From NCBI RefSeq assembly GCF_009931435.1, contig NZ_CP043414.1: a stretch of 64,000 nt of DNA. One strand, written 5' to 3'. A program made the position numbers and the translations under genes. Positions 57,780 through 58,609 of this stretch are shown piece after piece. The notes under the pieces were generated by a model, which made no database searches, was not told the origin of the DNA, and was given only the letters and a program-made list of their open reading frames with translations. Numbering within the stretch: the first letter of the stretch is position 1; every line of letters begins with the position of its first letter. Origin of the DNA: Escherichia coli (lineage in GTDB: Bacteria; Pseudomonadota; Gammaproteobacteria; Enterobacterales; Enterobacteriaceae).

Positions 57780-57838
57780 CTAAAACTAAGTATTTTTAGA
57801 TTAAAGGATAATTTTTTTTAGGTCAATGCAATCTAAAA
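57780..57838. promoter_or_regulatory. Immunity-region operators (OR-like) between cro-like and cI-like genes
   Basis: CTAAAA-N8-TTTTAG (57780-57799) and TTTTAG-N11-CTAAAA (57816-57838) inverted repeats sharing the CTAAA half-site with the palindrome downstream of cI. Confidence 0.4.
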
Positions 57839-57862
57839 TAATTTATATTCAATTCACGGGAG

Positions 57863-58513
57863 ATGATGATGGAAAGCCTTGGCATTAGGCTTAAGAGACT
57901 CAGAAAAGACAAGGGACTGACCCAAGTCGAACTGGGCAAGCTTTCTGGCGTAACAGGGGTAACTATAGGGTACTGGGAGAAAGACCTAAACGAACCCGGT
58001 AGCAAAGCTCTTAGTAAATTAGCCCAAGCACTAGGAACTACTGAGTCCTATCTCCTATATGGAGTATCGTCTACTGAACCTACCCTTGTGCAGAACAATT
58101 CAGGCACCCAAATCCCCTATCTTTCATGGGGGGAAGCAATTTCTTTCCTAATTTTAGAAGGAGAGAAAACTATGGGAAATGCCGACAGAATCACCACATT
58201 CTTTGACGTCAAGGAGGGGGATTTTGCCGTTTCAATGCCTGATGACACTATGCACAACCCATCAGGGTCGCCAAGCATTCCGGTTGGTGCCACAGTGATC
58301 ATGAGGCCTAGAGAAAAATATAAAAATGGTAGTATCGTCGCTGTAATAGTCCCAGATCCGCTTACAAACGAACCATCTATGACTATAAAAAAATTAGTCA
58401 TCGACGGAAAACTCGTGTATTTAAGCCCCCTCAATCCTCGCTATCAATCGTCCTTACTGACACCTGAATGTAAAATTGTTGCTGTAGCAAAAGGTGTGCA
58501 GTTCAGCCTATAG
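57863..58513 (+). CDS. CI-like repressor (HTH + S24 LexA-type autopeptidase)
   Basis: 216 aa; N-terminal HTH (GLTQVELGKLSGVTGVTIGYWEK) and C-terminal S24-like domain; three tandem ATGs at 57863-57871, the third best placed relative to the GGGAG SD. Confidence 0.8.
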   Translation: MMMESLGIRLKRLRKDKGLTQVELGKLSGVTGVTIGYWEKDLNEPGSKALSKLAQALGTTESYLLYGVSSTEPTLVQNNSGTQIPYLSWGEAISFLILEGEKTMGNADRITTFFDVKEGDFAVSMPDDTMHNPSGSPSIPVGATVIMRPREKYKNGSIVAVIVPDPLTNEPSMTIKKLVIDGKLVYLSPLNPRYQSSLLTPECKIVAVAKGVQFSL

Positions 58514-58535
58514 CTTCCACTTTGTTTTTCAATCA

Positions 58536-58560
58536 GAGGTCGGCTTTGTCGACCTTTTTT
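58536..58560 (+). terminator. Rho-independent terminator after the cI-like gene
   Basis: AGGTCG-GCTTTGT-CGACCT hairpin followed by a T6 run. Confidence 0.55.
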
Positions 58561-58579
58561 AAATATATCTAGATCACAC

Positions 58580-58609
58580 TTGACTATAAAACTAAATAGA
58601 TTTAGTTTT
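58580..58609 (+). promoter_or_regulatory. OL/pL-like operator-promoter
   Basis: TTGACT -35-like hexamer (58580-58585) overlapping a perfect palindrome AAAACTAAAT-AG-ATTTAGTTTT (58588-58609). Confidence 0.4.

Follow-up and report, generated by a model that had tools for sequence, protein, structure and literature searches.

Putative operators of a P22-like immunity repressor on both sides of a cI-like gene in a Rac/Qin-like Escherichia coli prophage

The operators of phage lambda are 17 bp long and of the TATCACCGC type, and they differ from those described here, which lie in a lambdoid prophage of Escherichia coli. The repressor of phage P22 contacts positions 2-7 and 12-17 of its operator, and its readout of the four central base pairs, where A/T is preferred, is indirect (PMC4267663). 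In prophage CP-933P of E. coli O157:H7, a lambda-like switch with a rightward promoter (PR), a repressor maintenance promoter (PRM) and a leftward promoter (PL) has been footprinted, which has the operator consensus GTTTAGTAA and four palindromes (PMC8630535); the published YdaT site is TTGATTN6AATCAA (PMC9986795). In Qin, dicBp, the PL analogue, is repressed by the immunity repressor, and induction takes place via the antirepressor Rem (bioRxiv 10.1101/2023.04.14.536235). Here, we analyzed a 64,000-nucleotide stretch of E. coli DNA (NCBI RefSeq assembly GCF_009931435.1, contig NZ_CP043414.1), hereafter the window, which contains the immunity region of a Rac/Qin-type lambdoid prophage at 57121-59340 as identified by gene content and Pfam. 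Comparison with related loci indicates that the repeats on both sides of the cI-like gene in this region are very likely the operators of a lysis-lysogeny switch in the style of lambda and P22.

Symmetric sites flanking the cI-like gene

The cro-like and cI-like genes diverge from an intergenic region of ~100 bp containing several related symmetric sites, an arrangement typical of lambdoid immunity regions. An initial annotation of the window had described CTAAA(A/T) half-sites on both sides of the cI-like gene. These hexamers do occur, at 57780, 57794 (minus strand), 57816 (minus strand), 57833, 58592 and 58600 (minus strand), but the true unit is CTAA-N6-TTAG, a conserved 14-bp core within an 18-bp symmetric site with the consensus ATCTAAG-TTAA-CTTAGAT. 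The hexamer shows no enrichment across the window (44 found versus 54 expected) and is therefore not the signal as such. There are three putative right operators between cro and cI (OR1, OR2 and OR3, with spacings of 22 and 25 bp) and two putative left operators past the cI terminator (OL2 and OL1) (Table 1). The exact core occurs only twice in the 64 kb, in OR1 and OL1, one on each side of cI, and repeat analysis detected a 27-nt direct similarity between these two sites. Judged from the comparisons below, it is nearly certain that the repressor and Cro of this prophage use these sites as OR and OL operators.

We searched the window with a symmetrised 22-bp matrix built from 23 sites at the loci of cI homologues of other genera only (42-69% identity), which has the consensus AAATCTAAGTTAACTTAGATTT and a site centre of >90% A/T. 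OR1, OR3 and OL1 are the top three matches in the 64 kb. The best unrelated match, with rank 4, is CAAAGTAAATTTAG at 41131-41144 (15.1 bits), and CTAAATTCTATTTG at 53566-53579 scores 14.3 bits; both lie in AT-rich DNA outside the module and are probably chance matches.

The sites overlap putative promoters. In PR, the end of the -10 element and the predicted +1 (~57791) fall within OR1, and the spacer contains OR2, which reaches the -35 element; OR3 adjoins cI and overlaps the putative PRM -10 element. As a guess, the latter may be TATATT at 57844-57849, which would place OR2 at approximately -41.5 and OR3 over the -10, with a predicted +1 at ~57856. The same type of operator is found at a second putative promoter, PL, which lies 3' of cI and points away from it. 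OL1, the centre of a 26-bp near-palindrome at 58586-58611, covers the PL spacer and -10 element, and OL2 lies 8 bp upstream of the PL -35 element and overlaps the T-run of the terminator. In related loci, the promoter scan called homologues of PL as TTGACT-17-TAGATT (O157 relative L005) and TTGACA-17-TAGATT (Morganella relative L013), and a homologue of PR as TTGATA-17-TAATAT (L013), with operators inside both promoters.

Alignment of seven copies from E. coli, whose cI genes have diverged by 10-14%, showed hardly any variation from CTAAGTATTTTTAG through CTAAAATAATTTAT, and OR1 and OR3 themselves are invariant. The OR1-OR3 span is 96.7-98.4% identical, compared with 86.5-90% for cI and 67-82% for the 3' untranslated region of cI in the same relatives. 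3' of cI, the sequence common to the relatives is limited to AAAACTAAATA..TTTAG.TT.AT, with the core of OL1 kept and its flanks varying. Because most lineages have CTAAATACTTTTAGATT at the place of OL1, the long OL1 palindrome is peculiar to the present lineage. OL2 scores 17.9-19.8 bits in three of four lineages of E. coli relatives and 12.1 bits in TW08637, always at a distance of 33 bp from OL1. Three substitutions, CTAAATACTTTTAGATTTAT to CTAAATAGATTTAGTTTTAT, were also observed in this lineage and in strain A35 (58586-58611 compared with L004 and L005). They lengthened the arms of OL1 to a perfect 12 nt and weakened the PL -10 element from TAGATT, the form in relatives, to TAGTTT.

The cI homologues with 42-69% identity come from Salmonella, Symbiopectobacterium, Yersinia, Arsenophonus, Xenorhabdus and Morganella. 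The helix-turn-helix (HTH) of the repressor, GVTGVTVGYWEKD, is kept down to 42% identity, with the pattern TQVxLGKxxGV(S/T)GVxVGYWEKDLNEP nearly unchanged. We compared the neighbours and operators of six of these distant cI loci. In all six, a divergent gene of the P22_Cro family lies ~100 bp from cI, and the otherwise diverged intergenic DNA contains three CTAA-N6-TTAG-like sites, with OR1-OR2 spacings of 22-24 bp, an OR2-OR3 spacing of 25 bp and OR1-OR3 spacings of 47-49 bp; the position of OR3 is kept as well. The OR2 counterpart in two of the six has at least two core mismatches and was identified by eye. A promoter of the form TTGnnn-N17-TAGATT/TATATT follows cI at five of these loci, and its spacer and -10 element contain a site. 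Moreover, a second OL site lies ~33-35 bp upstream in L009, L011 and L013, which is perfect or has a single mismatch in L009 and L013.

Exchange of the immunity module and rival explanations

The sites and the repressor gene lie together in a module bounded by mosaic junctions. Heteroimmune phages and prophages match the window up to ~57602, inside cro, and again from ~58615, near the predicted start of PL; on the cro side, heteroimmune E. coli prophages share just 57540-57602. The N-terminal 56 codons of cro (57603-57770) fall within the module, and the DNA-binding part of Cro, the repressor and the operators are inherited as one exchangeable unit. Of 5426 complete E. coli genomes, 473, with O157:H7 among them, carry a copy of the cro-cI-OL segment (86-99.9% identity), as do two induced phages. 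We further retrieved 115 IMG/VR contigs via the shared downstream leader and counted sites of at least 18 bits as strong. Five of these mosaic relatives combine this cI type with two or more strong sites, and both are missing from the other 110, which leaves no discordant contig. A motif search of related prophages, one of the checks proposed in the initial annotation, found the sites in relatives with this cI type and in 0 of the 110 contigs that lack it. Phage Tritos, a heteroimmune phage with both flanks in common with the window, has a best site of only 3.9 bits. Judged by these matches, it is a clean example of the exchange of an immunity cassette, with the right junction near the predicted PL start. 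The immunity region of Tritos resembles that of HK022, with the HK022-like operator strings AAAATGTACTAAAAGTACTTTACA ... AAAGTACAT (L002, ~3240-3290; compared with HK022, L137, 810-900, minus strand).

In the proposed mechanism, a dimer of the cI-like repressor would bind 18-bp two-fold symmetric operators with an A/T-only centre. Repressor at OR1 and OR2 would occlude PR, which would serve cro, the ydaT/cII-like gene and the replication genes, and repressor at OL1, with OL2 assisting, would occlude PL, which would serve the ydfA-like gene, the exonuclease gene and downstream genes. OR3, which overlaps the maintenance promoter of cI, would be the expected target of Cro and of negative autoregulation, and Cro, as a member of the P22_Cro family, would be expected at the same sites as cI. 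Recognition as in P22 C2 is most likely, in which the HTH would contact the outer ~6 bp of each half-site and the uncontacted A/T-rich centre would be read indirectly. The analysis establishes the sites, how well they are conserved, that they co-occur only with this repressor type, where they fall on promoter elements and where the module ends. That the repressor binds, the order in which it would fill the sites, its cooperativity, activation of PRM and looping are inferences from these data.

If the repeats had arisen by chance in AT-rich promoter DNA, as UP-element or -10-like runs, and had no specific binding protein, the lack of enrichment of the hexamer would be expected, the non-coding segments are indeed 71% A+T, and the count of exact cores is only weakly significant by itself (at least two matches in 13 of 100 shuffles). 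However, the matrix from other genera selects exactly these sites. In windows simulated with a first-order Markov model of the dinucleotide frequencies of the 64 kb, the maximum score averaged 11 bits and never exceeded 20.9 bits; a local model with the composition of the non-coding segments (71% A+T) gave a probability of 0.0004 for a maximum of at least 23 bits, and none of 5000 simulations produced four sites scoring 14 bits or more. The OR span is also conserved above the coding DNA, and the sites and the repressor type co-occur perfectly, and the motif does not turn up at equal strength in heteroimmune relatives, where the maximum was 3.9 bits in Tritos and all sites in the 110 contigs stay below 18 bits. 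A chance origin is therefore extremely improbable. The geometry of the initial annotation, with a 6-bp half-site, two OR sites (inverted repeats of 20 and 23 bp) and one perfect 22-bp OL palindrome, is very improbable too, even though its hexamers are present at the places given. The outer CTAAAA of its first pairing (57780-57785) is lost in relatives (O157: CCC--AAATC), and TTTTAG at 57816 and CTAAAA at 57833, its second pairing, are everted and represent half-sites of two operators, OR2 and OR3. Three OR sites with a constant CTAA-N6-TTAG geometry, not two, are found in the window and in all distant loci. The supposed 22-bp palindrome at 58588-58609 reads AAAACTAAAT-AG-ATTTAGTTTT, in which the central AG is non-symmetric, and its outer arms are lineage-specific; the perfect arms are 12 nt long (ATAAAACTAAAT at 58586-58597 and ATTTAGTTTTAT at 58600-58611), and the repeat tool reported 15-nt arms at 93%. 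The proposal of the initial annotation is thus partly supported: comparative and statistical evidence upholds its core, namely that the OR and OL sites are operators of one repressor and define the immunity specificity, but its phasing, its number of OR sites and its single OL site, with OL2 lying 33 bp off, do not hold.

It is also conceivable that the sites serve mainly Cro or a host nucleoid protein (H-NS, Fis or IHF) rather than cI, and that the OL palindrome is, for example, part of a terminator or a recombination site. Cro and cI both vary together with the module, so that co-occurrence does not discriminate between them, the sites share their A+T richness with targets of H-NS and Fis, and OL2 overlaps the T-run of the terminator. 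On the other hand, a single base separates the half-site from that of P22 C2, the repressor with the N-terminal domain closest to this cI among solved structures, and OL1 lies exactly in the spacer and -10 element of a promoter that is conserved in five genera. The palindrome consists of A/T only and so cannot be a terminator stem. Moreover, cI and Cro act on the same operators in known lambdoid switches, and binding of Cro would thus be complementary rather than exclusive. We regard this explanation as unlikely.

Several observations nevertheless weigh against the interpretation of the sites as repressor operators. OR2 (14.1 bits) and OL2 (10.7 bits) are weak in the window, where the unrelated AT-rich sequences at 41131 and 53566 score alike. 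The promoter scan called neither PR nor PL in the window, the -10 elements of both match at three of six positions, and the putative PRM has a poor -35 element. The Salmonella homologue locus L008 is without a recognisable OL, and the five concordant IMG/VR contigs are closely related, which indicates linkage rather than five independent events.

The operator interpretation is unsurprising by itself, as the switch is a textbook lambdoid one in concept. Its value lies in an operator definition (consensus, five sites and promoter overlaps) that is precise and testable for an immunity type present in ~9% of complete E. coli genomes. It could be used to predict homoimmune prophages, to design reporter and induction experiments and to annotate the relatives in Salmonella, Yersinia, Xenorhabdus and Morganella. 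In addition, the system would be a natural specificity variant of P22 C2, with half-sites one base pair apart and recognition helices several residues apart, and could serve studies of direct and indirect readout.

Other features of the locus

The coordinates of the sites, promoters and genes are collected in Table 1. Position 57869 is the start of cI according to the RefSeq annotation of a genome with 99.9% identity. The intrinsic terminator of cI was not called by the promoter/terminator scan of the window itself and was supported by folding; its stem is kept in relatives despite changes in stem and loop, and the scan tool called the homologous terminator in the O157 relative L005.

Table 1 Features of the immunity region and its surroundings in the window
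Feature	Position	Strand	Sequence	Remarks
Replication-initiator-like protein	56135-57097	-		
YdaT (cII-equivalent) protein	57121-57546	-		follows cro
cro-like gene	57543..57770	-		75 aa, P22_Cro family; Pfam PF14549, E=1.2e-9
Immunity module	57603..58614			mosaic junctions; holds N-terminal part of cro, OR, cI, terminator, OL/PL
OR1	57786..57799		CTAAGTATTTTTAG	strongest: 27.1 bits, rank 1 of 64 kb; exact core
PR (cro), putative	57798..57826	-		-35 TTGACC (57826-57821), N17, -10 TAATCT (57803-57798)
OR2	57808..57821		ATAATTTTTTTTAG	weaker: 14.1 bits, rank 6
OR3	57833..57846		CTAAAATAATTTAT	23.5 bits, rank 2
cI-like repressor	57869..58513	+		214 aa; HTH_3 N-terminal (PF01381) and Peptidase S24-like C-terminal (PF00717, E=1e-10)
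cI intrinsic terminator	58535..58560	+		10-bp stem, UUU loop, U-run; fold -13 kcal/mol, z=-3.98
OL2	58559..58572		TTAAATATATCTAG	10.7 bits, rank 10; weak in this lineage
PL, putative	58580..58608	+		-35 TTGACT (58580-58585), N17, -10 TAGTTT (58603-58608); predicted +1 ~58615
OL1	58592..58605		CTAAATAGATTTAG	23.3 bits, rank 3; exact core
DUF1391 (ydfA-like) gene	3' of cI	+		

Although the C-terminal domain of the repressor belongs to the S24 fold family (PF00717), it lacks the canonical self-cleavage residues, i.e. the LexA/cI-type Ser-Lys dyad and the Ala-Gly/Cys-Gly site. Alignment with lambda cI and P22 C2 in the region of residues ~88-92 and ~124-128 showed that the nucleophilic Ser is replaced by Thr (DDTM versus GDSM/GNSM) and the Ala-Gly of the cleavage site by Ala-Ile (GEAIS), with the catalytic Lys (KKL) being kept. 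Both substitutions recur in the homologues from Salmonella, Yersinia, Arsenophonus and Symbiopectobacterium; those from Morganella are canonical (VQAG and GDSM). The alignment suggests that the repressor may be SOS-insensitive, with RecA* unable to stimulate its self-cleavage. As a tentative idea, which we consider possible but rather doubtful, this widespread type may be a switch like that of P22 C2 in which the repressor no longer undergoes self-cleavage stimulated by RecA. If true, the operators would belong to an SOS-blind switch that is flipped otherwise, for instance through an antirepressor, as in Qin with Rem.

The predicted PL transcript begins with a structured leader of ~100 nt (58615-58720, plus strand), which lies ahead of the ydfA-like gene and is conserved in heteroimmune Rac/Qin-like phages, in Symbiopectobacterium and in a phage deposited as Actinobacillus phage. 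Folded separately, six diverged leader types all adopt one three-tier hairpin, the 15-nt loop of which (CAAUACYNNGAGUUA) is invariant; an invariant UAAGUAGCCAGCCYGAGGC...GAACAUGACGGC segment comes next. When folded at full length, four of the six types also form a closing helix from their two ends; a matching AACCC/GGGUU complement was found by eye in type A, and P1 shows compensatory changes. A covariance model of the leader found a single copy in the window and no match in HK022 (putL), a P22-type phage or the distant cI loci. Homology of the leader to the put-type RNAs of HK022, as distinct from a functional analogy, is not supported, since the model did not match the PL/putL region of HK022 and the window holds no putR-like second copy. 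Rfam searches over 57000-61000 and, with lax filters, over 58600-58800 gave no match at the operators or the leader. The role of the leader could be antitermination, processing or stability.

At the cro/ydaT junction, TTGATTTTCATGAATCAT (57536-57553) corresponds to the published YdaT operator with one mismatch and lies in the same place as OM in CP-933P. This YdaT-like site is probably an establishment control of the PRE (promoter for repressor establishment) type in this prophage, as judged from its sequence and position. Between the replication genes and the remaining prophage lies an AT-rich (33-36% GC) cargo island (51000-54300, minus strand), in which two adjacent open reading frames, 53148-54146 (P-loop, weak HSDR_N-like N-terminus) and 51641-53143, gave only weak restriction-enzyme-like Pfam/PADLOC matches; they are possibly an uncharacterised pair of defence genes. 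At 59909-60063 (plus strand), an Rfam match to the small RNA STnc100 falls below the threshold (33.5 bits versus a gathering score of 47, E=9e-5).

Comparison with known immunity systems

The closest solved structure for the cI-like repressor is the N-terminal domain of P22 C2 (1adr, 2r1j and 3jxb; E ~1e-7), and a phmmer search matched 1adr over residues 4-66 with E=3e-8. Like P22 immC, in which the C2 repressor has operators OR1-3 and OL1-3, this prophage has an 18-bp symmetric operator with a TAAG-N4-CTTA register and an A/T-rich centre, three OR sites ~22-25 bp apart between a divergent repressor gene and cro, and a Cro of the P22_Cro family. The OL2/-35/OL1 layout with the -10 element over the right half-site is shared too, with an OL spacing of 35 bp in P22 and 33 bp here. 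The two repressors are, however, only ~31% identical overall, and their recognition helices differ (TGVTIGYWEKD here versus SNVAISQWERS in P22 C2). Correspondingly, the half-site is ATCTAAG here, with C at position 3, and ATTTAAG in P22. In the P22-type genome L014, the operators ATTAAAGAACACTTAAAT, ACTAAAGGAATCTTTAGT, ATTTAAGATGACTTAACT and AATTAAGAAGTCTTAAAT conform to ATTTAAG-N4-CTTAAAT, and P22 operators score 9-14 bits with the matrix of this prophage family. Identity of the two operator sets, i.e. homoimmunity with P22, was ruled out by the half-site, these scores and the recognition helix. The two systems are related but distinct, and by these sequence differences P22 and this immunity type should be heteroimmune. 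Moreover, the flanking genome is Rac/Qin-like here (ydaT, ydfA and an exonuclease VIII-type gene), unlike that of P22, and no N/nut system was seen at this locus, unlike in P22.

With lambda, this prophage shares the gene order and logic, three OR sites, operators over PR, PRM and PL, and an immunity module that is a recombination cassette. The C-terminal domain of the repressor is homologous to that of lambda cI (3bdn, E=8.5e-6), whereas its N-terminal domain matched no lambda cI structure in the sequence search. Lambda has OL1-3, compared with the two OL sites found here, and Cro belongs here to the P22_Cro family.

CP-933P resembles this prophage in its prophage group, its flanks and its cII-equivalent, YdaT, but it is heteroimmune: its switch comprises PaaR2, YdaS and YdaT, PaaR2 does not belong to the LexA-like cI proteins, and the transcript of PaaR2 also carries a toxin-antitoxin pair. 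Qin has a homologous left operon, including the ydfA-like gene and the leader, but a different immunity type, in which DicA (with DicC) is a short repressor without an S24 domain. A literature search for the operator strings and the RefSeq accessions of the repressor found none among the papers searched. In comparison with these systems, the specificity of the present prophage is new and uncharacterised, within a very well-known kind of system.

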